Shown: in pieces, positions 1 through 24,402 of the stretch
Layout: every line of letters starts with the position of its first letter
Numbering within the stretch: position 1 is the stretch's first letter
From: Nitrospinota bacterium
Lineage (GTDB): Bacteria > UBA8248
NCBI GenBank assembly: GCA_030754595.1
Contig: JASLZZ010000033.1
Span: 1-24,402, forward strand
Reading direction: 5' to 3'
DNA length: 24,402 bases
Made by a program: the position numbers and the translations under genes
Notes under the pieces: model-generated
What the model was told of the DNA's origin: nothing
The model's database searches: none
The model's input: only the letters and a program-made list of their open reading frames with translations

Positions 1-1
1 G

Positions 2-790: not shown

Positions 791-800
791 CGGACAAAAC

Positions 801-872: not shown

Positions 873-877
873 ACTGA

Positions 878-1025: not shown

Positions 1026-1091
1026 AATGGATATGATCGGCTCCCATAAAGAGACCTTCTTAAGTTATTCAATCTAGGTGGGATCCACTTT

Positions 1092-1516
1092 TTGCGGAGC
1101 ACAGCCAGACACGGAATTTTTTCCGATCTTTCATCGACTGTTTCAAACTTCGAATGGGGCAATCTATCCGGTAAAGATGAGAAAATCGGATTTTGCTATA
1201 CGGTAACCCAAGTAGGCGATGTAGATCTAATTTTTCGAATTCGCTACACGATTGGACGCGGGAACCGTAAAGAATCGATGGATTTGCCTATCCAACTCCA
1301 AACAACCCGACCGAATTTTGGGGGCATTTTCTGGTGGTGTTCACATCACATTGTCCTCCTGAGGTCGACGAGGTCCCTTGTGGACAACGAGTCAGAAAGC
1401 TTTTTCTCCGCCCCGGAAACCCCTACTTCGGATGCAGACACTGCCACGACCTGACCTACCAGAGTTGCCAAGAATCCCATAAATTCGAGTCCCTTTTCAG
1501 TAAGAAGCCTTTGTAA
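1092..1516 (+). pseudogene. Frameshifted, IS-truncated Cys-rich (Zn-ribbon-like) hypothetical protein of a type I associate with integrative elements
   Basis: ORF 1092-1454 (...LQTTRPNFGGIFWW) continues in another frame as ORF 1334-1516 (FTSHCP...CGQRVRKLFLRPGNPYFGCRHCHDLTYQSCQES). The frameshift is near 1333-1345, and the final TAA (1514-1516) lies inside the IS21 end. Confidence 0.6.
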
Positions 1517-1586
1517 AGGGCAGCCTAAAGGTGCATCGGCGGGGCGGCGTAAAAGTGTACTACCTGGTATGAGAAGAAGGGGGCCC
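1512..1586. mobile_element. Solo IS21-family terminal segment (remnant end)
   Basis: 64/75 identical without gaps to 24070-24144, the end adjoining istB. It starts with TGT and has two internal GGGC..TAAA..G.AC-type repeats 24 bp apart. Confidence 0.88.
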
Positions 1587-1644
1587 TGCAGTTAAAAAAT
1601 TTTAGGGACTCAGCCCCAAAAATGGAACCGGGAATAACAGGGAA
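1586..1644. repeat. Second, diverged copy of the CAGGGAA-motif segment (copy B)
   Basis: Aligns without gaps to 956-1014 (44/59 identical, offset 630 bp), ending in an identical gggaataacagggaa. Confidence 0.7.
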
Positions 1645-1651
1645 ATGGCTA

Positions 1652-1822
1652 TTATTTAGCTCCCACCTCCGCGTCGGTCAAAAGAATCCTTTTGCCACCG
1701 AGCTTTCCTTTCAGGACACGGTTTTCTTCGATCAAATAGTCGATCACCTTCTCCAGATGCCGGTTCACCCAGCCAGATAAGGTGTTGAGGAGGAATTCCC
1801 AGGGCTGCAGGGCTCTGTTCAT
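1652..1822 (-). pseudogene. N-terminal fragment of an rve/integrase-core-type transposase (56 aa; not in the ORF track)
   Basis: Translates as MNRALQPWEFLLNTLSGWVNRHLEKVIDYLIEENRVLKGKLGGKRILLTDAEVGAK*. This matches the recalled N-terminal motif GWxNRxQxxVIxYLxEENRVLxxxLGxKRxxLTD of that family. It is truncated where repeat copy B begins. Confidence 0.65.
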
Positions 1823-1926
1823 GAGGGCGGATTCTAACCTCTTGTGAGTAGAATGGGAGGCAGAATCCTGGCATCAAAAGGTCTTTTAGAAAAGGGAGTT
1901 AGGATTCAGATGAATATTTGGACAGG

Positions 1927-2367
1927 TCACCATTCCGCCCTGTCGATTAATTCCTTCTTCCGCGTTATGGCTTCCGCCAAATTCGCCAGGGACCTTCCAG
2001 CCATATAGTCGAGAATCTGATCCCTTAGGGGTTTCCAGGTATCATGGAGAGGACAAGGTGCGGTATCCGTGCACTCGGCCAATCCTATCGCGCACCGCAT
2101 GAAACCATCCTCTCCATCGATGGCGGTGACGACCTCAAGCAGGGATATTTCCTTGGGAGGTCTAGCGAGACCAAATCCGCCCTTGGGTCCCTTTACTGAA
2201 ACAAGAATACCGGAACGCGCCAATTGCTGAAGCAATTTCGCTAAAAAGGGCGCCGGCAACCCTTCGGCTTCTGCAATTTCCTGAGTCCGTATCAACTCGG
2301 AATCACTATTCACCGTGATGTAAGTCAGAGCCCGAAGCGCATACTCACAAGGACGCGAATAAATCAT
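1927..2367 (-). CDS. Rrf2-family transcriptional regulator, likely Fe-S binding
   Basis: EYALRAL, winged helix FLAKLLQQL...SVKGPKGGFGLARPPKEISL, and C-x6-C-x5-C-x2-H (CAIGLAECTDTAPCPLH). Confidence 0.95.
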   Translation of the reverse strand: MIYSRPCEYALRALTYITVNSDSELIRTQEIAEAEGLPAPFLAKLLQQLARSGILVSVKGPKGGFGLARPPKEISLLEVVTAIDGEDGFMRCAIGLAECTDTAPCPLHDTWKPLRDQILDYMAGRSLANLAEAITRKKELIDRAEW

Positions 2368-2526
2368 TTTTCCTTCCTAAGATTTATCGGTCAGAAAATG
2401 TCTCTTAGCGGATCACCCCAAATGGTCCATTAGGTTCCGAGCCTCCACATGAGTAGGTGCCTCCGACAGCCCCTCCCACTCGTCGTCAAATTTAGATGCA
2501 CGAGCGTTTCACCGAATCGGATACGC

Positions 2527-4506
2527 TCATGATTGCGAGATATCCTCCGGCCGGAATAGACACTCAGGCGCTGCGGGCCCGTTCCCCGGATGAGAAGCTC
2601 CCTCCGGAATGAAGGCTCCTACATTCTCCCGCACCTGGGCGATTGCCTCCTCGGCCAGGGCCAATGTTATGATTTGACGGCCCTGGGCGCGGGCTTCGGC
2701 CTCGACGCGCCCCCGGGTCATCGTGCGGGGAAATCCCTCGGGCACCCTCTCCAGGCGGGCCTCGGCCTCTTCGGTCCAGCGAAGGGGCTCATCTTCGTGT
2801 TCGGTCGGTGGCGAGGAAGGCGCGGTCTTCCGTCCGGACGCTGCCTCTCCGGGAAGCGTGTCCTCTTGCCCTTCGTCTGGGGAGGGCGCGGATGGAACCT
2901 CCTGCGGCAGGTGGGCTGGGTTGACGCTTTCCTTAATCAGAGGCCGGGCAAACTCGAGGCTTATGGTGGAAACCTTCTTGAGCCGGGCCGCCTTCTCGAT
3001 GCGCTCTTTTGCTCGGCGGCGCTCAAAGGCGTCCCCTACGCCATCGAGGGCGTCCCCCGCCGCCTTGGTCCACCGGAGCCGCCGGCCATCGAAAGTCTCC
3101 TCCTCTATGAACCCACCCTGCGCGCGTAAAACCTCATCCTCCACCCCGCGATCCACTTTTTGAAAGGCCTCCGCCCCCGCCCCGCAAACCGGGCAGCGTA
3201 CGGGGTCATCGGCCCTGGCGGTGTAACCGCAATCGGAGCAGATATGGCGGATGTCGAGATCGCGCCGGAGGTGATCTTCCGCCATCGCCTTCGCCATCCG
3301 CTCCATGACCTTTTGGGCGCCCATCGGCATGAAGGTTTCCATCGCCTCATCGATCATCTTATTCGTTACGACCGAGTGGCCCTGCTCAATCGCATAGCGC
3401 AGAACACCGGTCCGCGCCATGCCGCGTACAAAAGCGGGGACCCGCTCCATGCGTTCCAGCGCCTCATCCGTCCAGGCCACGGCCTCGTCAGCGCGGATTT
3501 CCATGGGAGGATTAAAAGTGCGCGCCGTGAGCAATACGTTGCAAGGGGCGAGCCTGAGCAGGTTTTCGGTGTTGGATCCCATGTCGCCCTCATCCACCGC
3601 ATGTACACCCACTCGGCCAAGGCACAAGAGCCAGGGCTTGACCTCGCGGCAGTAGGTGAGGATCTTCTCGAACGCCTTGCCGTCCAGGAGGGTGGTCTTA
3701 AGCTCCATGCCCTCCTCCTCGGCCAGCCGCTTGGCCACTTCGAGGTGGCCCTGGTAGATTTTCGCGAGACCCGTGTCGATGAGCTCTTCGTGGAGCTTTT
3801 CCTGCTCCTTGAAGCGGAATGTTTTTGCCGCTTTTTCGTTCAAAACGTTCACGATAGCCGAGAAAATGGTGTAGTGGAGATAGGGATCGAAGGCGGCCAC
3901 CGCCTCCACGGGCCGGTCAAGCGCGCGGCCCAGGGCAAGCGCCTGCTTCAAGGCAGCGAAGGACTGCGGGCTTCCGTCGATCCCCGCCACGATGGGCCTA
4001 CGCTCGTCCTTTTTTTCGAGATCGCGCACAATCCAAAAGTCGGTCTGCGCCCCGCGGACGACACGCTCGGCGACCCCGCCAACCTGGGTTTCCCGGCCCG
4101 CACCCATGCCGAGAGCCCCCATAACCACAAGGTCGTAGCGGCTTTGGGAGAAGTCTTCGAGAAGCATTTTGTAGTGCTTTCCGTCAAAAATCTTCCTCTC
4201 GAAGGGGATGTTCGCCTCCTCGCAGCGGCGCTCCAGGACGTCCAAATAGGAGTCCGAGATAAGACGGAGGCCGAGCGTGATGAGCGAATCATGGACCTCT
4301 CGCTGGTGCTCGAGTTCTTCTTCTTGTCGATATTTTTCAGGAAGGGTGTACTCCATCTGCTTGAAACGCATGTCATGGAGCTTCGCAGCGTAGACATGGC
4401 AACCCACCAAATGGGCACCAAAAGTAGAGGCCAAGCGAAGGGCGTGATCCATGGCGCGGTTCGAGTGGGCCGAGTTATCTACAGGCACGCAAATGGTTCG
4501 GTACAT
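2527..4506 (-). CDS. Multidomain universal stress protein: 2x USP + PCP_red + rubredoxin-like + 2x PCP_red (659 aa)
   Basis: Start moved to ATG 4506 (AGGAGG upstream; MYRTICVPVDNS). The second USP begins at IVAGIDGS. G-x2-G-x9-G motifs, CSDC...CPVC, and three WTxxA...-type repeats are present. Confidence 0.88.
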   Translation of the reverse strand: MYRTICVPVDNSAHSNRAMDHALRLASTFGAHLVGCHVYAAKLHDMRFKQMEYTLPEKYRQEEELEHQREVHDSLITLGLRLISDSYLDVLERRCEEANIPFERKIFDGKHYKMLLEDFSQSRYDLVVMGALGMGAGRETQVGGVAERVVRGAQTDFWIVRDLEKKDERRPIVAGIDGSPQSFAALKQALALGRALDRPVEAVAAFDPYLHYTIFSAIVNVLNEKAAKTFRFKEQEKLHEELIDTGLAKIYQGHLEVAKRLAEEEGMELKTTLLDGKAFEKILTYCREVKPWLLCLGRVGVHAVDEGDMGSNTENLLRLAPCNVLLTARTFNPPMEIRADEAVAWTDEALERMERVPAFVRGMARTGVLRYAIEQGHSVVTNKMIDEAMETFMPMGAQKVMERMAKAMAEDHLRRDLDIRHICSDCGYTARADDPVRCPVCGAGAEAFQKVDRGVEDEVLRAQGGFIEEETFDGRRLRWTKAAGDALDGVGDAFERRRAKERIEKAARLKKVSTISLEFARPLIKESVNPAHLPQEVPSAPSPDEGQEDTLPGEAASGRKTAPSSPPTEHEDEPLRWTEEAEARLERVPEGFPRTMTRGRVEAEARAQGRQIITLALAEEAIAQVRENVGAFIPEGASHPGNGPAAPECLFRPEDISQS

Positions 4507-4585
4507 TGAAATGAGCCCTCCTTTCGGGAAATACATACCGGAGAGGCCGGATTCGGGAAGCCTCGCGAAGCCTTTTCTAACGTCT

Positions 4586-5380
4586 CTACTTCTCCTTAAA
4601 TTCGAATTTAACGCTTACCGAACCGGCCGAAGAAACCGTGACCTGCTTGGCGATCTCGACGGGCGCGGCGTATTCGTAGAATGCGGGTTTGCCGTCTTTC
4701 TTGAGTGCCTTGGTGATCTTCCAACCCTCGTGCCAGGCCTTCAGGGTGTACTTGCCGGGTGGCACACCTTTGATTGTGAACCGGCCCTCCGCGTCGGTCA
4801 GAGCGTAGTAGGGATGATTCACCACCCAGATGTAAGCGCTCATCCATGCGTGGCCCGCGTCGCACCGCATCCAAATGATACCCGCGCGCTTGAGCCGCCT
4901 CTTGATGGTGAGCCCCTTCCGCGGGAAGGGCAGATTGTAGGAAGCTTTGCCGAACATGTGGATGTTGTGGAGGACCTCGTCGCCCGTCGTCATGGCGAGC
5001 TTGGCGCGCCGAGGGACGATGAGAACATGAGGGGTATACTCGCAGTTCTTCTGGTCGAGCAAAACGGGTTTTTTGGGCCGCACCAGCTTGCGGCCCTGCC
5101 GGATGTCGGCGAGGTAGACTACCGTGTTCTTCACTCCCTTGCTTTGAGAGTGAATGAGTAGCCTGGGCGAGGCCTTCTTTCCCGTCTTCCCCGCATCGCA
5201 CACCTCGGTGTTCTTTAGAACAGGAAAAGACGGCACCTTCGGGATGCCCCCACCCCAAATCACGCTACCGGTGATGGTTCCGCCGTTCTTTACCTTGATG
5301 GCCTTATACGCCGCATCCGCCGACGGAGTCAGGAAAACCGCCAGTGAGACGAGAAAAGCAACCGCCAACGACAGTCTCAT
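4586..5380 (-). CDS. Exported cupredoxin-like protein with a C-terminal carboxypeptidase-regulatory-like beta domain
   Basis: Signal peptide ending ADA, a type-1 copper-like ligand set HNIH...CDAGHAWM, and PYYALTDAEGRFTIKGVPPGKYTLKAWHE. Confidence 0.8.
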   Translation of the reverse strand: MRLSLAVAFLVSLAVFLTPSADAAYKAIKVKNGGTITGSVIWGGGIPKVPSFPVLKNTEVCDAGKTGKKASPRLLIHSQSKGVKNTVVYLADIRQGRKLVRPKKPVLLDQKNCEYTPHVLIVPRRAKLAMTTGDEVLHNIHMFGKASYNLPFPRKGLTIKRRLKRAGIIWMRCDAGHAWMSAYIWVVNHPYYALTDAEGRFTIKGVPPGKYTLKAWHEGWKITKALKKDGKPAFYEYAAPVEIAKQVTVSSAGSVSVKFEFKEK

Positions 5381-5437
5381 TAAATTACCCTCCTTTTATG
5401 ATTCGCCCCGTGGCGCAGAGTGCGCCGCCGCGTTCTC

Positions 5438-6355
5438 TCATTTTCCCTCGCCCGCGCCCGGCTGGGCGGGGGCGGCGCCCGAGGAGGGAGCCTTCAGTAA
5501 CTTCAGGAAATCGGCCAGGTTCTGCAGCTGCGCGACCGTCATGCTCTCCGCGAACTCAGGCATCTTGCTCTTGCCGTCTTTTGTGGTGTATCCCTTACCT
5601 CCCACGATCACCGCGTTCGGGTTCACGATGGACTCGATGAGGTACTCCCGCGTCTGGATATCTCCGATACCGGTGAGATCGGGCCCCACGCCCCCTTCCT
5701 CTTCATCCTTTGAGACGGGGAATTTCACGCCGGCAACCTTGTGGCATTTAAAACACTCCATCTCCTCGAAGGTGTCCTTGCCGTCCTCGGGATCTCCCTC
5801 GGGAAACCGGATGCTGGGCGCCATGGACGCCGCGGCCAAATCCCGCGATTTCCCCTTATATGGGGCTTGGGCTCTGGCTACCTGCTGGAGTTCCTTCGCT
5901 CCCACCTCGATGCCGCTTTCGCTCAGGAGGTAGCTGATGACGGCTGCGATCTCCTCGTCCGAGAGGGCGATGGGAGGCAGGTGAATGGGTGTCATCAGCT
6001 TGGAGAAGCCGGGCACGATAAAGACATCGGGCTCGTAGATCGACTCTACGATGTACTGGACGGCGCTCATGCCGGGCTTGCGCTTGGCGGACCGCACCTC
6101 GATAGGCTCCGTGAAGGCGTCTTTCACCCCCAGGTTTGGCCCGCGCTCGGCGCTGCCCCGGCTCCCCAGGCTGTGGCAGGTGGAGCATTTGCCCTTGTTC
6201 CAGAATAGCGCTTCTCCCGCCTCGGGGGAGATCTCCCCGCTCGGCCGCATCGTCCCGCCACCACCCGAGATCTCGGTCAATACAACGGAGACGTAGATGA
6301 ACGCGCCGATCCAGATCAGGGAAAACAGGCTGACCTTCAACAGAGTCTTCCCCAT
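5438..6355 (-). CDS. Membrane-anchored dihaem cytochrome c
   Basis: N-terminal TM helix, CSTCH and CFKCH each followed by GPxL and YxxESIxxP motifs, and distal Met candidates. Confidence 0.92.
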   Translation of the reverse strand: MGKTLLKVSLFSLIWIGAFIYVSVVLTEISGGGGTMRPSGEISPEAGEALFWNKGKCSTCHSLGSRGSAERGPNLGVKDAFTEPIEVRSAKRKPGMSAVQYIVESIYEPDVFIVPGFSKLMTPIHLPPIALSDEEIAAVISYLLSESGIEVGAKELQQVARAQAPYKGKSRDLAAASMAPSIRFPEGDPEDGKDTFEEMECFKCHKVAGVKFPVSKDEEEGGVGPDLTGIGDIQTREYLIESIVNPNAVIVGGKGYTTKDGKSKMPEFAESMTVAQLQNLADFLKLLKAPSSGAAPAQPGAGEGK

Positions 6356-6360
6356 GGGCG

Positions 6361-8070
6361 CTATCCCTCCTCACCTCTCCCGGCGCCGGAGCCCGAATGC
6401 CCATTCCGTCGTCCGCGGACCCGCCGAACCAGAAAACCCTCGAAAGCCAGCCCGACAAGCCCGCCCAGGAGGGCGTAGAGGTAGACGCCGATAGGCGTCT
6501 CGGTATCGAGCTGCACGTAGTGCCAGCTCGAGACGCTTCGCCGCATGCCGAACTCTCCATTTCTCCCGTCCCAGGCGTGGAGCACAAAGGGAACCCGCAT
6601 GCCGGGGGCGAATTGGACGTCCGTTTTTAGGTTGGGCGTTTGGAGCGGCCGAACGATCACCACCTGCCACTGGCCCGCGGAAAATGAAGCCTGGCTGCGC
6701 ACATGGTGCTCCCGGGCGGGCTTATTGGCCGGAGGCCGGCTAAACCCCTTGCCCACCTGCTCCAATACGGTCCGGCCCCCGTGGTCGGCCGGGTTCTTCT
6801 GCCAGTCCGCTCGCCACTCCCAAAGATCAACAGCCGAGCGCGCCCCACCCAGGAAGAAGTAGGGCTTGCGGGGCCCCGCGGGTGGTTTCGCCGGAAACTG
6901 GAGGGCGATGGCGTCGCGTGCGGTCCGAAGGGCGAGTTGATCCTTGACGGAGACGAAGCTGTCGCGCTGAGGCGCGAGGAACCGCTTCGGCACTTTGTGG
7001 GATTCATTCTTGAAGCGATCGAACCAAGAGATGCGAAAAGCGATCGATCGCCCGTCGTGGAGCGCCCGCACCGTCGCCCGATCGACAGAGGGATTGGGCC
7101 AGCGCGGCCGGACGATGAGTTGGCCGCTCAGAGGGACCTCAAGGCGGTCGGCCTCGTCCCAGCGGGGATCATCGGGGCGGAGGGGAATTTTACCCTCGGC
7201 GCTCCGGGCGGTGAGGACCACCTTCCCGCCTAGGGCTTCCTCCGCCTGGAGAGAGGACACGTAGTAGGCCAGGGCCCAACGTTCTCGCTCGTTGAGCGAG
7301 TCGGAGTATCCCGGCATGGGAGTTCCGTTGAGGCCGGTCGAGAGGGTTCGAAAGACCTCCTCTAGCGAGGGGCCCCAGTTCTTGTAGCGCCAGCCCGCCG
7401 CCAGGTTCGCCGGCATGATGGGAGCGTCCCAGTCGTCCTTCTGGGTGCCTGCCTCCTCGCCGTCCCCCCTACCCTCGGGGCCATGACACTTGACGCAGGC
7501 CCCCCGCGCCTCATCGATGTAGATCTTCCGCCCGAGCTGGATCAGCTCGGAGCTCTCGGCCGGGGGGGGGCCTTGTTTGATGAGCTCCTCGTAGGGGTTG
7601 AACTCGGGGTCGGCGAAGTCCTCGAAGAAGCTCTTGATGTAGAAGACCACCTGCCAAAGCTCGTCCTCGGGCAGGCGGAATGTCCCCTCCCCCCAGGCCG
7701 GCATGCCGGTGCCGGGTGCGCCAAGCGAGACGGTGCGGAAAATATCCTCGTCCGTAGGGCTCTCGCCCGTCTTTGTCGTGCGAAATTTATAGAGGCCCTT
7801 CGTGAAGTCCCGGGGCCGGGGGTGGAGGTAGTCGGCGACGGGGCCGTTTCCGTCCCCCTTCTCCCCGTGGCAGAAACCGCAACGCTTCTCGTAGACCACT
7901 TTCCCCTTGGCCACAAGCTCGGGAGTGGCCTTTGGCTTGCGCTCCCTCAGCTCGGAGTTCCCGTAGCCGGCCGGGACGGCCAGCGCCGGTACAGACCCGA
8001 GGGCGAGAATCGCGCCGAGGAGGAGCGCAAGGGCGCCCGCCATCCGCCTGCGTCCGCTCTCGCTAGTCAT
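6361..8070 (-). CDS. Dihaem cytochrome c + EbdC/DMSO-reductase gamma-like domain with C-terminal TM anchor (569 aa)
   Basis: Start moved to ATG 8070 (8043 also possible), overlapping the upstream stop. Signal peptide, CGFCH, CVKCH, PRPRDFTKGLYKFRTT, DAIALQFP...WDG, and a hydrophobic C-terminal helix. Confidence 0.88.
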   Translation of the reverse strand: MTSESGRRRMAGALALLLGAILALGSVPALAVPAGYGNSELRERKPKATPELVAKGKVVYEKRCGFCHGEKGDGNGPVADYLHPRPRDFTKGLYKFRTTKTGESPTDEDIFRTVSLGAPGTGMPAWGEGTFRLPEDELWQVVFYIKSFFEDFADPEFNPYEELIKQGPPPAESSELIQLGRKIYIDEARGACVKCHGPEGRGDGEEAGTQKDDWDAPIMPANLAAGWRYKNWGPSLEEVFRTLSTGLNGTPMPGYSDSLNERERWALAYYVSSLQAEEALGGKVVLTARSAEGKIPLRPDDPRWDEADRLEVPLSGQLIVRPRWPNPSVDRATVRALHDGRSIAFRISWFDRFKNESHKVPKRFLAPQRDSFVSVKDQLALRTARDAIALQFPAKPPAGPRKPYFFLGGARSAVDLWEWRADWQKNPADHGGRTVLEQVGKGFSRPPANKPAREHHVRSQASFSAGQWQVVIVRPLQTPNLKTDVQFAPGMRVPFVLHAWDGRNGEFGMRRSVSSWHYVQLDTETPIGVYLYALLGGLVGLAFEGFLVRRVRGRRNGHSGSGAGRGEEG

Positions 8071-8917
8071 GGAACTTCTCCGGCTTCCGGGGCTCCACGC
8101 CCGCCGTGGCGTACTCGGCGAGGATGATCTTCCATATCTCCTCATCCGTGAGGTCTTCCTTCCAGGGCGGCATGGCGCTGTCCCAGGGGCTCGCCGTCAC
8201 GGGGAGACCGATCCCGCCCTCCTTGATGCGCCAGAAGAGATAGCCCTCCACCAGGGTGGCGATGGTGCCCAGGTCGGTGAAGTTGGCCGGCTTGAGGCGG
8301 AATCCCGCCGCGTGGGGGCCCTCGCCGTCGGCCTTGGTGCCGTGGCAGGGCCGGCAGTTCTTCTGGTAGAGAACGCGCCCCTCCCGGGTGTGGCGCGCCA
8401 GGAGGCGGCGCCTCCCTTGCTGAAGGCTGAGCCCCGCGAGCTTTTCCTCTTGCATGAACTTTTGCACCAGGGCGTCGGAGGGTTTGCGGAAGGGGTTTTG
8501 GAATTTTTCGAACTTTTTGGGAATGGTAGGGTGCTGAATCCGGCTCTCAACCGGTGCCTCACTCGCCGGGGCGAGGCCGCGGTAGACGAAAAAAGCGGTG
8601 AAGAGGGGAATAGCGGTGAACACGGCCAATCGTGTTGCCCGAAGGACCCTACCCCCTTCCGCCGCCCCAAGGAGCACCAGGATGGGCTCCATGAACTCGC
8701 TCTTGAGCTCCTCACTCGAGAAGGCGTAGACGAGAATGCCCGAGAGAACGAGCAACATGTACATAAAGATCGCGCTAGCCGGCATTGGGAGGGGGGTCTT
8801 GGCATCCACCACCCACTGCGCAAAGTGAGGGAAGAGGAATCGCAGGGCCAGATAGCTCCCCACGAATACGGCCGCCGACCACCAGAACACCCCCGCTCGC
8901 CTGCCGCTCCAGCTCAT
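8063..8917 (-). CDS. Membrane protein (about 3 TM helices) with a C-terminal monohaem cytochrome c domain
   Basis: Three hydrophobic segments, CRPCH, PANFTD, and SAMPPWK (distal Met). ATGA overlap with the bd-like gene. Confidence 0.9.
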   Translation of the reverse strand: MSWSGRRAGVFWWSAAVFVGSYLALRFLFPHFAQWVVDAKTPLPMPASAIFMYMLLVLSGILVYAFSSEELKSEFMEPILVLLGAAEGGRVLRATRLAVFTAIPLFTAFFVYRGLAPASEAPVESRIQHPTIPKKFEKFQNPFRKPSDALVQKFMQEEKLAGLSLQQGRRRLLARHTREGRVLYQKNCRPCHGTKADGEGPHAAGFRLKPANFTDLGTIATLVEGYLFWRIKEGGIGLPVTASPWDSAMPPWKEDLTDEEIWKIILAEYATAGVEPRKPEKFHD

Positions 8918-12260: not shown

Positions 12261-12327
12261 CCTTTCCTCTCCCGGAAGGAACACCTCCATCCCGGACCAT
12301 TCCCTCAACGAGCTTCGCCCTCCCCCG

Positions 12328-13143: not shown

Positions 13144-13327
13144 CTCGATCAACCCATCTAAAGAGAAGCAAAGGAACCCACTTTCATCCGCCGGCCTCAC
13201 TCTCGGTGAGGCTTCCTCGCATAAGTGCGCAGGCCATATCGGAGGCCTCGAAGGGAATGGAGCCCCCACCAGCCATAGGGTCGGCGAAGGCAATCTCCCT
13301 CTTTTTCCAATGACACGCCTTTTACCT

Positions 13328-13420: not shown

Positions 13421-13509
13421 GACTGTCCTTCCTTCTTACTTGTACTCATCCGATACCGTTGGGTTTTCCAAGATCGCGACCGTGTAGAGGATGTAGGAAG
13501 ATGAGGGGC

Positions 13510-15818: not shown

Positions 15819-15829
15819 CGTCCTTCCCC

Positions 15830-17116: not shown

Positions 17117-17438
17117 CGCTCTTCGCCTCCTCAGAACTCGGTTTCTTAAACTCGTCTTGACCAAGCCAGCAGGATATGTCCTCGCCTTTGTAATATCCCC
17201 ATCTCTGCCTCAGAGTTGCGATGAGGCGGTGGACATACATTTCACCCTTCTCTTGGTAGACCCTGTGGGTGGCCTGGTAAAAGGGATCTCGGAAGAGGCG
17301 AAGTAGACTTTCATCGTCCCAGCCGCCCCGGATGTACTCCTCCACCAAGCACTCCGCCATCTGCTCGAGATCCCCTCCAGGGAGCGACACACCTACCAGC
17401 TCCATGGGGTCATTGGCGTCAAACTTTTTCTTAATCAT
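17100..17438 (-). CDS. Small hypothetical protein between nxrA and nxrB (112 aa)
   Basis: Fills the nxrA-nxrB gap, starting 9 bp after the nxrA stop and overlapping the nxrB start. Protein-like sequence DPMELVGV...MAECLVEEY...LFRDPFY. Confidence 0.8.
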   Translation of the reverse strand: MIKKKFDANDPMELVGVSLPGGDLEQMAECLVEEYIRGGWDDESLLRLFRDPFYQATHRVYQEKGEMYVHRLIATLRQRWGYYKGEDISCWLGQDEFKKPSSEEAKSDGKLA

Positions 17439-17447
17439 CTTGCACCC

Positions 17448-20400
17448 TCATGTCTTTACTAATTTTCCCTGAAGGTACAGCTTCATGAAGTCGCTTTCAT
17501 TGGCTGGGCTGGACCCCGTTCTGGCCGGCTTCCAAACGCCCTTTCCGCCCAAGCCACCGTGCTCAGCTTTGGCGATCCTGATCAGCGTCTCCTTGGGGAC
17601 CGAGTTGATAGCGTGGTTATCCGACTCGAAGCCAAAAGTAAAAGCCATTTCCACCTTCTTCTTATGGAAGAGGGAATCGGTCTGGTGCATGGGCATGAGC
17701 CAGGAAATGGTGACACTCTGCTGAGAGCCGTAACGGAAGCTGGCCTGATAGCCCGTGGGGGAGAGAGCCCTGCCATCGGATCTCTCCTCATGCGCCTTGA
17801 CCGACCGCTCTGTGGAGATGAAAGAGGCGTGCTTCATCATCGTGAAGTGGTAAGGAAAGGAGGGATTGTATTTGACCCGGAGCATCAGACGGGAGACCTT
17901 GTAGTAGAAATCACTAGGTTTGACGCCTATATAGGGGCGATTGGCCGGGTCGGCGTCTACATAGACGTAGTCCCCGTCGTTAATGCCCAGGTCCTTAGCG
18001 GCCTGGGGGTTCATGTTGATCTGCCAGTCATTCACGCCAGGTTGCCTTTTATCCATGCGGTAGGGGTCCCCGAAATTCTGGCTCCAGATCCAGTTCCAGT
18101 CCGTAACAGCCCATTGGGAATGGACAGTGTGGCGGCTCTTAGGAGTAGAGCATAAGAACCGGAAGCCCTTCTCCCACAATGGATTCATGGTTTCCTTCAC
18201 CTTGGACCAGGGGAGTTTGTTGTTAGCCACATGCCTTGACTCCCAGTCTAATCCGTTCCCTCGCAGAAGCATCTCCGGGGTGAAGCCGAAGTTGTCGGGC
18301 CTGATGAAGGGGTTGGTGCTCACGATGACATTGGGCATATAGGGCGTAGCCTCCGGCCCCTCCCGGTGGACAACAAAATTCTCACCGTGCGCGATGGCCT
18401 CTGGAATATCGCAGTAGGCGTTGAGCCTCCCAGTGTCTGTGTAGAAGGGGATGTTCTCGTCGACCTGCTCCCAGAAGGGTATCCGAGGATAGGTCCTGAA
18501 GAGCATCAAACTGCTGCCAGGTTCTCCGTATTTTCCGGCCAGGATGTCGCTCACTTCATAGCCTCGGCCGGTGGTGCTCCCGCTCACCAGGCGGTGGATG
18601 TAGACCTCCGTCTTCTTCTCCAGGGCGAATTTCCAGTAGTCTTTGAAGCGTTTGTCGCCTGTCAACTCAGCCAGTTTCTCAGCGACGGTAGCCATGATCA
18701 GCGTATCATCACGGGTGTCGTACAGGGGCTTGATCCCTCCCTTCCATATCTGGAGAAAGGGGTTGGAGCAGGAGGAAGTAACCTCATGGGTCTCGAACTC
18801 CATCCAGGAGTTGGCGGGCAGGACCACGTCGGCATACTCGGCGCTCCCCGTCATCTCGACATCCTGGGTGACGATCATGTCAATCTTGGGGTTGGTATTC
18901 TTGATAAGGTGATAGGCCCACTTGGCGTTGTTGATAAGGTTCACATTGGTGAACCATACCGACTTGCTTGGTGTCGGCAAATGGGTCTTGCCGGTGAACA
19001 GCTTTCGGCCGTACTTGGGGGTACGGACGATCAGGGGCTTTTCTCCGTGTGCCCAGTAGCCTACCTCCTCCCCCCTGGCGTAGGACCTTACTGGGACCTC
19101 CTTCGCATCGGCGGCCGGGTCGAGGTTAGGGTTGAAGGGATCCTCTGCGACCCACCCTTTGAAGCCAGGTCCGCTCCACTCGGAGGCCTGGAAATTGGCT
19201 GCCTTGTAATTACCGGCCCACGTGTGGGAGCCGGAGCCGGGCACGCCGATGCTCCCAACCAGCATCAGGGGTAGGTAGGTAGCGCGGTTGTGGAGGGTAG
19301 CGTGGAAGTAGTGGTTGATTCCCTCCCCGTAGTGGACGGCGATGGGGTAGGCTTCGCGGGGCTTCCCCAGAAAGTCGGGGTCCCAGAATCTCCTGCCGAA
19401 ATCCGCGGCCAGCTGCTTCAGAAGCTTCTTGGGGGCGCTGGTGATCTCGGAAACGGTCTCCAGGCCGTAGTCCCGCAGGTGGACTTTGTACATCTCCCAG
19501 AGGGTAAACACCTCCACCTGAGAGCCGTCCACCAGTTTCACATTGCCCTTCCACCCCAACTCGGGATCGATCCCTTTGGCCGTGAGTTGCTCTCCCACAG
19601 CATCCCGCGTGACGGCTTTAACGGAACCCGTCTTCTTGTCAAAAACCACGAAATCCCCCAGACGCCTGTACTGGTCCTCCTTCAGCCCCTGGATAGCAAA
19701 AGAGGGCCCGTCCTTGGAGAGGCCGGGCTTATAGTCGGGGAAGACCTCGTGGGCCCCAAGCCTCTTCAAAGTGTCGGCGCGAACGAGGATGGGGAAGTCG
19801 GTAAACTTCTTGACGAAGTCGTAGTCAACCCAGCCTTTGTCCATCAGAGTTTTCGTTACGTATAAGAATATGGAGGTGTCTGAAAGACCGGGGCGGACTG
19901 GGATAAAGTAGTCTGCCTTGCTGGCCGGCGGGTTATACTCGGGCGCGATGACCGCGATGCGCCCACCTCGTTCCATCATCTCAACGAAAAAGTGGGCCTC
20001 CGGCATCTTGTTCTCGATCATGTTTTTGCCAACGTGGACGGTAAACTTGGTATTTCGGTAGTCGTTGAGGTCTATGTCGGAGGTCTGGAGACCGTGGACG
20101 AAGGGGTGTCCCGGGGCCTGGTCGCCATGCCAGGTGTAGTTGGACCATTTTCGACCGCCCAGCGCCTTTTCTGGGCCCACGCCGCGCACATGGTCGTCGA
20201 CAAGAGCCATCATATTCGAGAAGCGGTAAAGCCCGTACTTGCCGATGACGCCCAGAAGTCCCATCCCACCGCGGAACTTCATCGTCCTGGTTCCCGCTCC
20301 CCCCCAGTATTCCAGCATCTCGGGGGGATACCCGTCCGCCTGAAGACGACGCTTGCCCTTTTCCCCGCTATAAGTTTTTGCGACGCTGATTAAGCCATTG

Positions 20401-20948
20401 CTCAGGTAGGTGCTGACCTCATCCCAGGAGGCGCGTACAAACTCGTCTGTCCCCCGGCTGGTGAACTTGTATTTCGTCCGAAGCTCAGGATTATCGCTTA
20501 AGGAAGGAAAACCATCATCGGCCCACCTTTTCCAGCCCTTGCGGATCATGGGGTACTTCAGTCGGTAAGAGCCATAGACTCTTCTGTGAAAGGTATAACC
20601 CTTCAGGCACATCCTGGGGTTCCAATGGTGGGAGGCGTGGTTGCCATAGATGTCCTTGATCCTATGATTGTCGTAGTTCTGCTCGAGGCGCATCACCACG
20701 CCGTTTCTCACGAAGGCCCGCACCCGGCAGGCGTGGGTGTCATTTGGGGAGCAGACGTAAGTAAAGGTCCCATCGGACCGATACTGATCATGATAGATCT
20801 CCTCCCAGTTCCTAACGGGATAGGTTTCCAACGGATTTGCGACCTCGGTGGCAGGCCTGAGCGTCCGAAAGGCAAAGGCATTCTCAGCAAAGACCAGCCC
20901 AGTTCCTGCTGCCGCAATCCCTAAAAATTTCCTCCTCGTCAGATCCAC
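17448..20948 (-). CDS. nxrA: Nitrite oxidoreductase / nitrate oxidoreductase alpha (Mo-bis-PGD) subunit, Tat-exported
   Basis: GTG start with GGAGGGG RBS, Tat motif LTRRKFLG, FS0 motif C-x3-D-x3-C-x39-C (CSPNDTHAC...MCLKG), WSNYTWHGDQAPGHPF with the Mo-ligand Asp, and TPKSRHTVHSQW. Confidence 0.96.
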   Translation of the reverse strand: MDLTRRKFLGIAAAGTGLVFAENAFAFRTLRPATEVANPLETYPVRNWEEIYHDQYRSDGTFTYVCSPNDTHACRVRAFVRNGVVMRLEQNYDNHRIKDIYGNHASHHWNPRMCLKGYTFHRRVYGSYRLKYPMIRKGWKRWADDGFPSLSDNPELRTKYKFTSRGTDEFVRASWDEVSTYLSNGLISVAKTYSGEKGKRRLQADGYPPEMLEYWGGAGTRTMKFRGGMGLLGVIGKYGLYRFSNMMALVDDHVRGVGPEKALGGRKWSNYTWHGDQAPGHPFVHGLQTSDIDLNDYRNTKFTVHVGKNMIENKMPEAHFFVEMMERGGRIAVIAPEYNPPASKADYFIPVRPGLSDTSIFLYVTKTLMDKGWVDYDFVKKFTDFPILVRADTLKRLGAHEVFPDYKPGLSKDGPSFAIQGLKEDQYRRLGDFVVFDKKTGSVKAVTRDAVGEQLTAKGIDPELGWKGNVKLVDGSQVEVFTLWEMYKVHLRDYGLETVSEITSAPKKLLKQLAADFGRRFWDPDFLGKPREAYPIAVHYGEGINHYFHATLHNRATYLPLMLVGSIGVPGSGSHTWAGNYKAANFQASEWSGPGFKGWVAEDPFNPNLDPAADAKEVPVRSYARGEEVGYWAHGEKPLIVRTPKYGRKLFTGKTHLPTPSKSVWFTNVNLINNAKWAYHLIKNTNPKIDMIVTQDVEMTGSAEYADVVLPANSWMEFETHEVTSSCSNPFLQIWKGGIKPLYDTRDDTLIMATVAEKLAELTGDKRFKDYWKFALEKKTEVYIHRLVSGSTTGRGYEVSDILAGKYGEPGSSLMLFRTYPRIPFWEQVDENIPFYTDTGRLNAYCDIPEAIAHGENFVVHREGPEATPYMPNVIVSTNPFIRPDNFGFTPEMLLRGNGLDWESRHVANNKLPWSKVKETMNPLWEKGFRFLCSTPKSRHTVHSQWAVTDWNWIWSQNFGDPYRMDKRQPGVNDWQINMNPQAAKDLGINDGDYVYVDADPANRPYIGVKPSDFYYKVSRLMLRVKYNPSFPYHFTMMKHASFISTERSVKAHEERSDGRALSPTGYQASFRYGSQQSVTISWLMPMHQTDSLFHKKKVEMAFTFGFESDNHAINSVPKETLIRIAKAEHGGLGGKGVWKPARTGSSPANESDFMKLYLQGKLVKT

Positions 20949-21120
20949 GTCTCATCCCCTCCATTCCTTGGCCTGGCTTTCCGGTTTAGCGAATCTCCCT
21001 CTCCCTGGGTCCGCTCCGGGAATGTGGCCATAGCACACAAAAAGTACTTCCTCCTCTTGGCCAGGACCCTGCGACCTGGCCGCAAACGCGGTGAGGCGAA
21101 CTCTCTTCAGGTCCTCCCGT

Positions 21121-22677
21121 CTATTCGATCCGCAGCTTGTACCAGGTGGTGACGGACTTCTGGCCGTCGCGGTCGCGGTGGCTGCCGTCCCAAACGGCGA
21201 AGGCGATCGGGTGGACCGTTCCGGGAAGGAGCTTGGCGTCGTTCTCATCGGCGCTCCTGAGGGTGCGGGTGAAGACGACGCGCCAGCGGCCTTTCTCCCA
21301 CCGGCCCGAGCCGACCACGTTTTGTCCCTCCGGCCCCTGCGGATCCAGGGTCCCGAAGCCGGCGGCGTTGATGTCCATTATCGCGCGGGCCCGGCCCGGC
21401 GTGGTGGTCGGGTTGCCGGCCGCCCAAGCCGCGATGAAGAGCCGCTTCGTCATCCGCGCGGAGGGGATCCTCTGATGTCCAATCTGCCTTTGCTGGTAGG
21501 CGACCCCCGTGAAGGGATAATCGTCCACCACCATGCCCGGATACTTCGCCTCGAGGCCGGCAGGCTTGCGTCCGAGTGTCGCGTTCCAGTACCAGATATT
21601 CACCAGGTTGTCGGGAGCACCCATGACGAAAAGGGGTGGATCCTTTTCGCGGATGGAAAACTGCACCGCAGCGGCGTCCATGAAAGACTCGCCGGTGAGG
21701 ATCTTCCTGTCGGGGGTGGCGTCGGCCCATTCGAGGCGGAAAGAGATCTCCCTCTCGCTGTGGATGGCCCGGACTTCCACCTCTAGGGACGGTCGCCCGT
21801 CGTTGAAGAGCTGCATCATCGGAATCACGGTAGGAACGACCCGGGTCCATCGGACGTCATTCGGTGACGTGGGAACATTTTGGATCCTCCGTGCCGGAAT
21901 GACCCCCGTACCGGGCTGCCAAAAATCACGCCCTTTGGAGGACTGACGGACAAAATGGGCCAGCGCGATCAGATCGTTCGGCTCGACAGTATCCGAGTAG
22001 GAGGGCATGGGCGTCCCTTCCATCCCCGTCAGGATGCGCGTTGCGATGGAGCGAATATCCCCCCCTCCCTTGAAAACGCCCCGCGTGTAGTCTCTCGCCC
22101 GAATAGGCCGCCCCTTGTAATCCTTGAGCGAGGAGGCGCTGGGCCCGTCGCCCTTCCCTTTCTCGCCGTGGCATTTCGCGCACTCGTACTTTTTGAAGGC
22201 GGCCTTCCCCTTGGCGATCCATTCCTTCGATACGGGCGGAAATTTGGGGAGCTCGACGAATTCCTCTGCAGCGTCCTCGAACCCGGCCAGGGAGAGCACG
22301 TACTCGGCGACCGCCCGCCGGTCGCTCTCACCCAAAGAGACAAAGCTCGGCATGGTCGAGCCCGGTAGGCCGAGGGTCAGGGTCCGGACGATATCAGAGC
22401 GGTTGGGAGGTTCCCCGGGAAGCGTGGTGCGGATCTTGAACATCTTCGAGGTTAAATCCCGCGGCCTCGGAAAGAGGAGGTAGGCACCTTCGCCGTCTCC
22501 TTTGCCGGAGGGCCCGTGGCAGACTGCGCATTCGCGCGCGTAGACGATCGTGCCGCGAGAGACGAGCTGAGGAACGAGCTTTAACTTCGCGGCTCCGACC
22601 GATGCATAGGAACCAAAGAAACCTATGGACATGAAAATCGCTGCGACAAAGAATTTTAGGACCATGATCCATCCCAC
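21121..22677 (-). CDS. Dihaem cytochrome c + EbdC-like haem b domain; NXR gamma-subunit candidate, paralog of 13510-15084
   Basis: N-terminal signal or anchor, CAVCH, CAKCH, FVMGAPDNLVNIWYW and WDGSHRDRDGQK. Confidence 0.9.
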   Translation of the reverse strand: MGWIMVLKFFVAAIFMSIGFFGSYASVGAAKLKLVPQLVSRGTIVYARECAVCHGPSGKGDGEGAYLLFPRPRDLTSKMFKIRTTLPGEPPNRSDIVRTLTLGLPGSTMPSFVSLGESDRRAVAEYVLSLAGFEDAAEEFVELPKFPPVSKEWIAKGKAAFKKYECAKCHGEKGKGDGPSASSLKDYKGRPIRARDYTRGVFKGGGDIRSIATRILTGMEGTPMPSYSDTVEPNDLIALAHFVRQSSKGRDFWQPGTGVIPARRIQNVPTSPNDVRWTRVVPTVIPMMQLFNDGRPSLEVEVRAIHSEREISFRLEWADATPDRKILTGESFMDAAAVQFSIREKDPPLFVMGAPDNLVNIWYWNATLGRKPAGLEAKYPGMVVDDYPFTGVAYQQRQIGHQRIPSARMTKRLFIAAWAAGNPTTTPGRARAIMDINAAGFGTLDPQGPEGQNVVGSGRWEKGRWRVVFTRTLRSADENDAKLLPGTVHPIAFAVWDGSHRDRDGQKSVTTWYKLRIE

Positions 22678-23157
22678 TCAGTTGGAATACGGAACGGTTC
22701 TATCCTCTTCTTGCCATCCTAAGGAGGCCCGCTCTTCAGCTGCCGAGGGGAGAAGTTCCCCGCATGAAACATCGGGCACCACACCTTCTTCCGTCTTAAG
22801 CCCTATCTTTTCGGCCTCGATGAAATCGGAGAGCAATCGGGCCGCGGCGGCGTAGCGGAAGCACGCCGCCAGACGGGTATAGATGCGGCCCCTCGCCAGC
22901 GAGATCATCCTCTCGGAGACGTTCGGGGAGTTCATAACGCCCCTCCTCAAAAGCTGTTCAGCCGCCCAGTCGACCGTCTCCTCATCAAGGCTCGGAAACA
23001 GAGCCCGAAACTCCGCGGCCCTCCGCTCGCGCACGCCCTCGGGGAGCTTGGTCTTCCTCTCGGGCCTGCCGTCCACGGACAGATCCCAGAGAGTACGGTA
23101 CCGATCGCGGAAGAGAAGCTCCTCTTGAAGTACATCAATCAACAGGGAATTGGCCAC
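22678..23157 (-). CDS. Hypothetical protein (159 aa)
   Basis: Fills the space between rrf2 (19-bp overlap) and the cytochrome gene (stop abuts its start). No motif recognised. Confidence 0.6.
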   Translation of the reverse strand: MANSLLIDVLQEELLFRDRYRTLWDLSVDGRPERKTKLPEGVRERRAAEFRALFPSLDEETVDWAAEQLLRRGVMNSPNVSERMISLARGRIYTRLAACFRYAAAARLLSDFIEAEKIGLKTEEGVVPDVSCGELLPSAAEERASLGWQEEDRTVPYSN

Positions 23158-23780
23158 GGGTTGACATCCACCGATTCAGAGGAAGAAATGTTTACCCCCT
23201 CCGTTTCGGCAGTAACGGTGCAACACTCAGATAACAGAACCTCGGGAGGGGGCAGGATCTCCATTTCCTCGGGCATGGGTTTGCCCCTTTTTTCCTCCAA
23301 ATTGTTCAAATCCGCGAAGTTCCGCCAAAAAGAGAGGGAGAAGATACTCTTGTTCTCCCCCCCCATCTCTCGTCTTTGCTTTGTGGCGATGACGATGTCG
23401 TGCAGATTGGTCTCGAAAAAGTCGTCCAGTCTCGCCTTCAGGAGTTTCCAGCGCTCGTGGAGGTGACAAGGTTTCTCCTCCGAGCAATCACGAAACCCAC
23501 AGGCAAAGTCCTCGAAAGGCCCCCTTCCCCCGATAGCGGACGCGATCCTCCCTAGGGATACCTCCTTGGGGGGAATTGCCATGCGGTATCCACCGCCAGG
23601 ACCCCTGCTGGATTTGATGATGCCGCCCCTCGAGAGCGCGCGAAGGGCCTTGGCAACGGTCGGCTTTGAGATCCCGGTGGCTAAGGCCAAATCTCGCCCC
23701 GTGTGGATATCCTTCCTATCCACCGCCATGTGGGAGAGGAGGCAAAGCGCGGTACTGGCAGGTTTCGAGTAGATGGGCAT
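23139..23780 (-). CDS. Rrf2-family transcriptional regulator with a C-terminal extension
   Basis: SKPTVAKALRALSRGGIIKSSRGPGGGYRMAIPPKEVSL and CGFRDCSEEKPCHLH, plus about 70 extra C-terminal residues. Confidence 0.92.
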   Translation of the reverse strand: MPIYSKPASTALCLLSHMAVDRKDIHTGRDLALATGISKPTVAKALRALSRGGIIKSSRGPGGGYRMAIPPKEVSLGRIASAIGGRGPFEDFACGFRDCSEEKPCHLHERWKLLKARLDDFFETNLHDIVIATKQRREMGGENKSIFSLSFWRNFADLNNLEEKRGKPMPEEMEILPPPEVLLSECCTVTAETEGVNISSSESVDVNPWPIPC

Positions 23781-23814
23781 AAGTCGCCCCCATCACAGGA
23801 AAGAAGAATCTCAT

Positions 23815-24059
23815 TAAGGATAATCATATGTCTCAATCCTGAATATATACTTCTGCCATTTACTTGCAAGCAAAAAATTGATATTTAAGGATATATTTAT
23901 GATTCTATCTTAAAATCTGCTTTCATTGTCATTTCCCGCAGCCGCAGGGTTGATACTTTAAGATAAACATATATATTTATCTTAGAATATATATTCCCCT
24001 TACTGTCTCCCCGCATCCGCAAGTTCGGTATAATAAGTTTAGCATATATATTTATCTTA
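23815..24059. promoter_or_regulatory. AT-rich control region with four phased palindromic boxes (putative Rrf2 operators)
   Basis: TAAG...ATC(C/T)T boxes start at 23815, 23886, 23959 and 24034. The best is TAAGATAAA-catatata-TTTATCTTA (23959-23984). Confidence 0.7.
23842..23869 (-). promoter_or_regulatory. Putative sigma70 promoter of the cluster (TTGCAA-N16-TATATT)
   Basis: Minus-strand -35 at 23864-23869 and -10 at 23842-23847, about 60 bp upstream of the rrf2 ATG and abutting the first palindromic box. Confidence 0.4.
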
Positions 24060-24133
24060 ATATACTTTTTGTAAAGGGCAGTCTAAAATCGTACCAGCAG
24101 GGCGGCATAAAAGTGTACCACCGGGTATGAGAA

Positions 24134-24157
24134 GAAGGGGGCCCGAGGGCCCCCTTC
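24134..24157 (-). terminator. GC-rich hairpin just downstream of istB (putative terminator)
   Basis: Perfect inverted repeat gaagggggccc-ga-gggcccccttc, 10 bp past the istB stop. The U tract is weak. Confidence 0.55.
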
Positions 24158-24167
24158 CTGGTCCTTT

Positions 24168-24402
24168 TCACTCCATTTCAGTGGTTTTCTGAGCCTCATT
24201 CTGCTTGTTTCGGTGCCGTTTTTCGCTTTGTTTGAGCCTGTAGCTCTCCCCGTTCATCTCGAGGATGTGGACATGATGTGTGAGGCGGTCCAGGAGCGCA
24301 CCGGTCAGGCGCTCTGAGCCGAATACCTCGGTCCACTCATCGAAGGGGAGATTGGTGGTCACCAGGGTGGAGGCCCGCTCATAGCGCTGGCTGAAGACCT
24401 CG
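24168..24402 (-). CDS. istB: IS21-family helper ATPase IstB (C-terminal part)
   Basis: EVFSQRYERASTLVTTNLPFDEWTEVFGSERLTGALLDRLTHHVHILEMNGESYRL, the canonical IstB C-terminus. Confidence 0.96.
   Translation of the reverse strand, partial: EVFSQRYERASTLVTTNLPFDEWTEVFGSERLTGALLDRLTHHVHILEMNGESYRLKQSEKRHRNKQNEAQKTTEME

Follow-up and report, generated by a model that had tools for sequence, protein, structure and literature searches.

A probable laterally acquired mosaic island for a second periplasmic nitrite oxidoreductase, lying between two IS21-family ends of different age in a marine bacterial genome

The 24,402-bp contig JASLZZ010000033.1 (C33) from the metagenome-assembled genome (MAG) GCA_030754595.1 of a Nitrospinota bacterium, referred to here as G000, contains a cluster of some 22 kb that encodes a periplasmic nitrite oxidoreductase (NXR) together with cytochromes and regulators, and that lies between two copies of the right end of an insertion sequence (IS) of the IS21 family. 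The window analysed is this entire contig and cannot be extended rightwards. An initial annotation had proposed that the cluster is a composite transposon, in which the two ends mobilize more than 22 kb of respiratory genes. Our analysis leads to a different history: we think it likely that the cluster is a laterally acquired, mosaic periplasmic-NXR island residing in IS-rich DNA, and that the flanking ends derive from two separate IS21 insertions of different age. The identity of the two ends, the truncation pattern, the decay of one copy and the cluster's foreign distribution and phylogeny are direct observations. To our knowledge, lateral spread of NXR has already been inferred from phylogenies; the vehicle has rarely been shown.

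The cluster is not the only NXR system of this organism. G000 (138 contigs, 3.55 Mb, 96.9% complete) carries a second NxrA on contig C66, which is 64% identical to the NxrA of the window. The C66-type protein is 96, 93 and 91% identical in the relatives G001, G003 and G014, the RpoB identities of which are 98, 90 and 83%, respectively, and it is 81-92% identical in other family members, with RpoB at 81-85% across the family. By these comparisons the C66 NxrA is the native copy of the lineage, tracking host RpoB. The relatives that matter most below are G004 and G001 (same genus), G005 (same family), G025 (same order, other family) and G029 (same class), of which G025 and G005 are incomplete MAGs. 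Among the 41 genomes compared, the NxrA of the window is 90% identical to that of G025, though RpoB is 74% identical in this pair, and reaches at most 67% in all others. In a quick maximum-likelihood tree of 28 NxrA sequences, for which a careful search was unfinished and which was built without Nitrospira, Nitrospina or a cytoplasmic NXR/NarG outgroup, the window NxrA joins L008 (support of 100 in the Shimodaira-Hasegawa-like approximate likelihood ratio test, SH-aLRT), then two groundwater MAGs (100) and then a MAG labelled Tectomicrobia (99), with the anammox clades as sister to the whole group (91). The C66 NxrA falls in a separate clade (SH-aLRT 100) with L189, L191 and L193; in the accessible text of PMC11373643 the L189 group is placed by its authors in UBA8248, formerly part of Nitrospinota, and G000 itself probably belongs to this lineage. 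Comparison of NxrA with host phylogeny, a check suggested with the transposon proposal, therefore reveals discordance, both in the identities to G025 and in the two clades. Thus, on present evidence, the NXR cluster of the window is a laterally acquired system that is second to a native one, as judged from these sequence comparisons. The lateral spread of NXR envisaged in the initial annotation is to this extent borne out by the discordance of NxrA and RpoB, but IS21 as the route has gained no positive evidence.

It could be argued that ancient paralogy accounts for the two NXR systems, with vertical inheritance in a phylum-level lineage, loss from most of its members and no lateral transfer. 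Consistent with such a history, G029 has a distant accessory module (65-72% nucleotide (nt) identity; 68% amino acid (aa) identity for the cytochrome bd-like protein) and an NxrA that is 65-67% identical to both types, while all close carriers belong to one order. Identities are, however, inverted with respect to host distance, as the bd-like protein, similar to NxrA, is most alike in G025 (85%). The window-type NxrA and the bd-like protein were found in none of the four genus relatives (RpoB identity 89-98%), and the bd-like protein occurs in just one of 24 family relatives, G005, where at 83% it is no closer than in the order-level relative G025. Furthermore, the nearest NxrA proteins outside the order (80-82%) are from groundwater MAGs labelled as three other phyla, Elusimicrobia, Acidobacteria and Chloroflexi (L009, L010 and L011). 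We therefore consider descent of both systems without transfer to be very unlikely. The labels of L009-L011 may be read in two ways: this NXR type passes widely between phyla, or mis-binning and mislabelling of nxr contigs are frequent.

The ends that bracket the cluster were aligned without gaps. Positions 1512-1586 and 24070-24144 are identical at 64/75 nt in the same orientation, exactly as first reported, and at 66/77 if the two preceding T residues are added. The 11 mismatches are at element positions 13, 19-21, 23, 25, 27, 30, 38, 50 and 54, such that the last 21 nt of both copies are identical. Among 100 mononucleotide shuffles of window 1-24000, none gave an ungapped match to the right copy above 40/75 (mean 34.8), and in BLASTN against the whole MAG the repeat scored E = 5e-19. 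The period of the repeat is 22,558 bp, and between the copies lie all the nxr, cytochrome and regulator genes (1927-23780), each on the minus strand; Pfam, the basis for the gene calls in the cluster, confirms this part of the initial description. It was also correct that the repeats are IS21 ends, as is evident from the TGT terminus, the 22-nt repeats and the IstB C-terminus at the right copy, and that the solo end at 1512 faces into the cluster, hence the proposed geometry is possible. The mismatches had been ascribed to an old event or to related elements, which agrees with the finding that a copy in G006 matches the left copy better (92% identity) than the right copy does (85%).

The right copy has the features of an intact end of a resident element. 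Its two subterminal 22-nt direct repeats are 17/22 identical, and the istB gene, which reads towards this end, is represented by a fragment that matches PF01695 with 81.4 bits (cut-off 24.1) at model positions 177-237. Over 333 nt the end is 96.7% identical to contig C10; right ends with istB are at the ends of both C10 and C105, to which identity is 97%, compared with 92-95% in the genus relative G004. Over 75 bp, the right copy shares 69-73 positions with each of the other three non-relic copies of G000. The window itself lacks istA and stops inside istB. At the end of C101, however, is a left end with an IS21-family IstA (NF033546, 193.6 bits; cut-off 160), and this left end shares the TGTAA, GGC.G and GTACC motifs with the right end. 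As other left-end material in G000, C62 carries a 105-bp solo left end (IRL) and C84 ends in a truncated IstA relic; no further left-end fragments were found at contig ends of this genome. In G004, contig C19 starts with a C-terminal fragment of IstA and has a right end about 1.4 kb further on. A bin-wide search of the G000 assembly found neither the interior nor the far left end of the IS21 element, and a complete copy was found in neither G000 nor the relatives fetched; G029:C213, a candidate for a complete relative, has IstB, a broken istA and no left end that was found. DNA of the IS end is present in 6/42 family genomes, G000 included. We conclude that the 24070 copy most likely belongs to the currently active IS21 population of G000. 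Target duplications of the IS21 family are 4-8 bp. The sole assembled left-end flank, that in C101 (GTCGCATA), matches neither right-end flank, GAAGCCTT or ATACTTTT. As described in the available portion of PMC10122671, IS21-family elements contain istA and istB between ends of two repeats each (L1/L2 and R1/R2), and the target duplication of IS5376 is 5 bp. The element resembles IS21, IS5376 and their relatives in its TGT start, its two subterminal direct repeats, an IstB gene that reads towards the end and, on C101, an IS21-family IstA beside a matching left end. It differs from them in that no complete copy is assembled and the left copy in the window is just a 75-bp stump.

The left copy, in contrast to the right, has the look of a relic. 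It retains the TGT terminus and both repeat units, and its homology ends after GGGGGCCC, the first arm of the terminator hairpin of the IS. At 62-68/75 against the four other right-end copies in G000 it is the most diverged of all. In its R1 repeat it reads GCATC where the 15 other aligned copies all have GTACC or ATACC, a motif that is kept even in the G029 copies, which are only 73-78% identical overall. The GTACC motif is probably part of the transposase site, because it recurs in the left end of the element too. Solo right ends make up two of the five copies in G000 (C33:1512 and C58:8516-8599), and the C58 copy is cut inside the same hairpin as the stump. Truncated IS21 ends were also found in relatives, namely in G004:C26, in G006:C162 (50 bp) and at two 41-bp contig ends of G014; the G004:C26 copy (L068, about 1570-1585) has an internal deletion from the hairpin into istA. 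Scattered solo ends had been named at the outset as an observation that would count against a composite transposon, and this is what G000 and its relatives contain; such ends are thus ordinary here. The collection is similar to the IS relics and internally deleted copies known elsewhere in that truncated ends of both kinds are scattered and one copy is deleted internally. It differs in that three independent truncations (C33 1579-1586, C58:8590-8606 and G004:C26) share a breakpoint in the GC-rich terminator hairpin, 3' of istB. The hairpin may therefore be a deletion hotspot; we know of no description of such a shared breakpoint for IS21, although no literature search was aimed at it.

The island is not kept together as a single unit elsewhere. 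In G025, the closest other carrier, the genes lie on three contigs: C21 matches window 2606-8870 (81% nt), C39 matches 8967-13155 (83% nt) and C11 matches 13546-20998 (91% nt), and window 21000-24402 and 1500-2600 have no counterpart in this genome. The G005 matches comprise two short contigs that align with 6539-12673 at 83% and a stretch 79% identical to part of the upstream NxrC-like gene. Because the modules match G025 at 81-83% nt, at 91% nt and not at all, the island is, by sequence, a mosaic in which three or more modules differ in affinity. The question of synteny in relatives, raised with the transposon proposal, is thus answered by a different arrangement in the nearest carrier. In G025, DUF72 and CoA-transferase genes come after nxrC, genes for a CusF-cytochrome c and a ParA-like protein stand before the accessory operon, and C21 carries an aldehyde:ferredoxin oxidoreductase (AFOR) gene farther on. 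No IS21-family transposase above the family cut-off was found in G025 or G005, both incomplete MAGs as stated, and, together with the presence of the IS end in 6/42 family genomes, this indicates that the IS21 element belongs to the family of the recipient. The same IS-bounded block was not found in other contexts or hosts, and copies in marine metagenomes show the same context as the window.

These data bear on the possibility that IS21 moved the segment, either as a unit formed by the right end at 1512 and the far left end of the element, or by replicon fusion in which the left copy decayed later. Several observations are in keeping with such an event. The right ends are directly oriented and bracket the cluster, as the ends do in composite transposons, solo-end units and IS21 replicon fusions; a disrupted open reading frame (ORF) on the host side adjoins the outer terminus of the stump, and the cluster is foreign to the genus. 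R68.45 is reportedly an example of replicon fusion by IS21. According to the accessible part of PMC10122671, the IS21 transposase can use single as well as tandem elements, and replicon fusion is reportedly catalysed by a cointegrase isoform. A metagenome contig (L213), considered below, also agrees in length with the repeat period to within 2 bp. It should be emphasized, however, that the two ends share 64/75 positions, as against 69-73/75 for the right end and the three other non-relic copies, that the stump is mutated in the otherwise invariant GTACC/ATACC motif, that stumps of both IS21 ends are scattered through G000 and its relatives, and that 340 bp of unrelated repeat debris (1586-1926) separate the stump from the first gene of the cluster. 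In addition, other carriers have a different gene arrangement and no IS21-family transposase above the cut-off, the three modules differ in their affinity to G025, no circular or tandem junction is among the loose ends listed, and the C101 left-end flank matches neither right-end flank. Composite transposons also differ from this locus in structure, which comprises one IS and one decayed stump, with ends of unequal age, and in the cargo, which is not found as the same block elsewhere. For the movement of more than 22 kb as a composite transposon we thus found no positive evidence, and give transport of the segment by IS21 little chance of being correct. Repeats hold 194 of the 276 contig ends of G000, and both ends in 75 of its 138 contigs; bracketing by IS is therefore no distinguishing property in this genome. 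The IS load of G000 is very heavy, with several families present in 15 to 30 copies at contig ends.

Marine metagenomes provide a view of the locus at population level. Counting a run as positive when it held at least half of the sampled words, window 20000-24100 is present in 20 of the 24 marine runs listed, from 13 studies. At similar depth and differing little, Logan contigs from four runs (four studies) span 4403-24402; the marine copies are 99.5-99.8% identical to the window, and L213 is 99.76% identical over the 11,000 bases compared (its bases 1-11000). Two alleles of the right junction were identified: 24069|IS, as in the window, and 24018|IS. The 24018|24070 allele, which is in contigs of two of the four runs and in L214, lacks the third of three repeats of about 55 bp upstream of the IS, and its IS end differs at 2/47 positions. 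The existence of two junction alleles indicates that, after the cluster had become established, the IS21 beside it was active or inserted anew. With the Rrf2 gene at 23139-23780 as probe, two near-identical metagenome loci were recovered, both with the IS21 end, and no relative was recovered among the genome contigs. The matches listed contained no loose end that reads into 1587.

The L213 record is 22,560 bp long, which is the repeat period plus 2; it starts at window 24141, inside the right copy, and, if collinear, ends near 1582. Were the 22.56 kb between the right ends a discrete unit generated by IS21, this length would reflect that unit, and a complete anammox-like periplasmic NXR would have been delivered into a marine nitrite oxidizer that already possessed an NXR of its own. 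We consider such a unit very improbable, and the ends of L213 probably reflect assembly breakage at G5C3/hairpin sequence shared with a high-copy IS. Two joints in the metagenome contigs were rejected as junction candidates. The 24144 -> 4403 joint in run X1, which might have been a circle junction, is the left stump of a 9,141-bp contig aligning to the right copy, and the 12742 -> 4403 joint in run X8 probably reflects repeat family D1, one copy of which ends at 12742. The run X1 may be the source sample.

The favoured history can be set out as follows. An old, related IS21 would have landed at the 3' end of a zinc-ribbon gene, been cut back as far as its terminator hairpin and then drifted, while other elements piled up beside the stump. 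The second NXR system would have been acquired and assembled from relatives in the same order and beyond, and a recent IS21 insertion into the AT-rich leader upstream of an Rrf2 regulator would be the last step. The order of the first three components (IS21 stump, debris and NXR acquisition) is not fixed by the data. We infer both this order of events and the view that the stump played no part in the arrival of the cluster.

Several points weigh against this history. The geometry of the proposed transposon is correct, and the stump, as far as its sequence goes, could still function. The interior of the IS, its left end and the flank beyond are absent from the assembly, so that no target duplication can be read for either interpretation. 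An IS-free allele of neither junction is among the matches listed, and we thus infer the independence of the two insertions. The agreement between the length of L213 and the repeat period keeps the bolder interpretation, an IS21-generated unit, alive. As G000, G005 and G025 all belong to one order, some of the pattern may reflect transfer within the lineage. Finally, G000 is a MAG with 6.4% estimated contamination.

The last point raises the possibility that the cluster derives from another member of the community and that the second NXR is an artefact of binning. The estimated contamination (6.43% before rounding) allows for this, and the 7-kb window 14001-21000 is at the 99th percentile of tetranucleotide distance from the genome mean. 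A survey of Nitrospinota likewise reports, in the part of PMC10839748 available, that binning of nxr genes is difficult, and marks one case as possibly misbinned. Both ends of the contig and its left 1.9 kb, however, consist of repeats typical of G000 and its relatives in the family. Six other sites in G000 match positions 1-221 at 97-99%, C10 and C105 match the IS21 end at 97%, and in G004 these repeats recur at a lower 92-95%. The other two 7-kb windows of C33 (1-14000) are at the 82nd-83rd percentile, and the accessory module has a G+C content (GC) of 62.0%, compared with 60.1% for the genome and 56.2% for the nxr core (13501-21000). The 9,141-bp Logan contig of X1, if collinear, links about 995-10135. 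Mis-binning is accordingly, in our judgement, very unlikely indeed. The native nxr region is also shifted in composition (GC 56.7%; its 7-kb window is at the 90th percentile), and composition is no more than mildly informative on whether the cluster is foreign.

The locus does not supply the vehicle of NXR transfer. It is a clear case of a marine lineage, related to the nitrite oxidizers of oxygen-deficient zones, with two NXR systems of different ancestry, in which the extra NXR has a full anammox-like accessory set, is located in an IS-rich setting and is almost unchanged in marine metagenomes of 13 studies. This bears on how the capacity for nitrite oxidation is assembled in low-oxygen seawater, and the locus is suited to long-read study of the movement of NXR modules. 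A full-text literature search returned nothing that combined 'nitrite oxidoreductase', 'transposase' and 'IS21', and the available portions of bioRxiv 10.1101/2023.08.15.553441 and PMC12903955 describe nxr without a link to a mobile element.

The features of the window are listed in Table 1. The gene set for a periplasmic NXR is complete, with a molybdopterin NxrA that has a twin-arginine translocation (Tat) signal, an iron-sulphur NxrB, haem NxrC proteins with an EB_dh domain and a NarJ-like chaperone. Whether the enzyme oxidizes nitrite or reduces nitrate cannot be told from such genes, a caveat also made in the available text of PMC10839748. The cluster resembles those of the anammox bacteria Kuenenia and Brocadia, and the periplasmic NXR of Nitrospina and Nitrospira, in its Tat-type NxrA, NxrB, NarJ-like chaperone and several NxrC-like proteins with EB_dh domains. 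Beyond these, it has a cytochrome bd-like protein, a Usp protein and c-type cytochromes. Brocadia loci, too, have Usp/PCP_red, NxrC-like and cytochrome c genes close to nxrA. Unlike the anammox systems, this NXR is hosted by a marine lineage formerly in Nitrospinota and not by anammox planctomycetes, it is a second system beside a native one, and its genes are arranged as a mosaic of modules that are separate from one another in the closest carrier.

Table 1. Features of the 24,402-bp window, in order of position
Feature	Position	Strand	Evidence or remark
End of high-copy IS, with transposase N-terminus at 2-148 (-)	1..221	-	Contig starts inside element
Multi-copy 'A-type' repeat	838..1026	.	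CAGGGAA motifs; common to same-family relatives
Zinc-ribbon pseudogene, uncharacterized family	1092..1516	+	About 30 N-terminal residues lost, one frameshift
Solo truncated IS21-family right end (IRR)	1512..1586	+	TGT terminus at 1512, former interior rightward, cut after GGGGGCCC
Partial second A-type repeat	1586..1644	.	75% identical to 956-1014; abuts stump
56-aa N-terminal transposase-like ORF fragment (1652-1822) and upstream repeat	1652..1926	-	Multi-copy in same-family relatives
Regulator/accessory respiratory module	1927..13293	-	Pfam; 81-83% nt to G025:C21, G025:C39 and two G005 contigs
Rrf2 regulator	1927-2367	-	Pfam
Usp, PCP_red and rubredoxin-like protein	2527-4536	-	Pfam
CarboxypepD_reg protein	4586-5380	-	Pfam
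Cytochrome c	5438-6355	-	Pfam
NxrC-like di-haem c with EB_dh	6361-8145	-	Pfam
Cytochrome c	8063-8917	-	Pfam
Cytochrome bd-like subunit I	8914-10926	-	Pfam
Radical SAM/SPASM and PCP_red protein	10923-12506	-	Pfam
PCP_red protein	12328-13293	-	Pfam
nxr core	13510..20948	-	Pfam; 91% nt to L008 only over 13546-20998
NxrC-like	13510-15135	-	Pfam
NarJ-like chaperone	15060-15947	-	Pfam
NxrB	15830-17164	-	Pfam
112-aa ORF	17100-17438	-	
NxrA, Tat signal TRRKFL	17448-20948	-	N-terminus VDLTRRKFLG...
Upstream module	21121..23780	-	No G025 DNA match; 79% nt to G005:C467 over 21125-21678
Second NxrC-like protein	21121-22677	-	64% aa identical to native NxrC on C66
159-aa ORF	22678-23157	-	
Rrf2 regulator	23139-23780	-	Pfam
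AT-rich leader, three direct repeats of about 55 bp	23863..24064	.	Each with palindrome TAAGATAAA..TTTATCTTA
IS21-family right end (IRR)	24070..24144	+	TGT terminus, two 22-nt direct repeats, then hairpin GGGGGCCC-GA-GGGCCCCC
istB C-terminal 77 codons (AAA+ helper of IS21)	24168..24402	-	PF01695; gene runs off contig end

The PCP_red domain (PF08369) is present in three of the accessory proteins, once with Usp and rubredoxin-like domains, once with radical SAM/SPASM and once alone. The second NxrC-like protein and part of the 159-aa ORF are closer to the corresponding C66 genes (64 and 63% aa identity) than to the downstream NxrC of the window. The native nxr cluster (G000:C66:3900-11900) comprises nxrA, a small ORF, nxrB, a chaperone gene and nxrC, and no copy of the accessory genes is on the same 44-kb contig. 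In the genus relative G001, a 3'-truncated Rrf2 gene (G001:C49:95-751; L073) is 88% nt identical to window 1997-2373 and lies between an IS end and a breakpoint of synteny with G000:C48:3289, beyond which the two genomes are 94% identical; this piece may be the remnant of a related island. At the other end of the cluster, the sequence 23801-24069 has a GC of only 29.7%. As its three palindromic repeats are immediately upstream of the Rrf2 gene (23139-23780), they are probably an operator array of that gene, a prediction made from sequence.

The left 1.9 kb of the contig is mostly debris of mobile elements and repeats. The 49-aa transposase N-terminus at 2-148, which occurs on 15 other contigs, mostly at contig ends, had no Pfam match, and from the motif at its N-terminus we take the element to be IS5-like. 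The ORF at 1652-1822 likewise had no Pfam match; its multi-copy state leads us to presume that it is transposase-like. The zinc-ribbon pseudogene has a TAA stop that overlaps the TGTAA of the IS21 stump, and the stump is therefore at the 3' end of this gene. Its closest homologues (166 aa; 87 and 79% identical) are on contigs of about 750 bp without context and end six residues past the stop in the window; reconstruction of an empty site through this gene was rejected, as there is no 3' remainder. The family, with 49 relatives in the database and no Pfam domain, has an N-terminal MGGxGSG followed by CGRRVxKLYLPPGxxYFGCRHCHDLTYxSCQESHKF. A scan of the window with Rfam returned no family at gathering score. 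The A-type repeat, about 190 bp in length, contains the palindrome TTCCCTG-TTTAG-CAGGGAA together with a series of CAGGGAA motifs; it is also present in G000 contigs C8, C48 and C129 and in L103 and L104 (G010), and often adjoins IS ends or precedes a transposase-like ORF.

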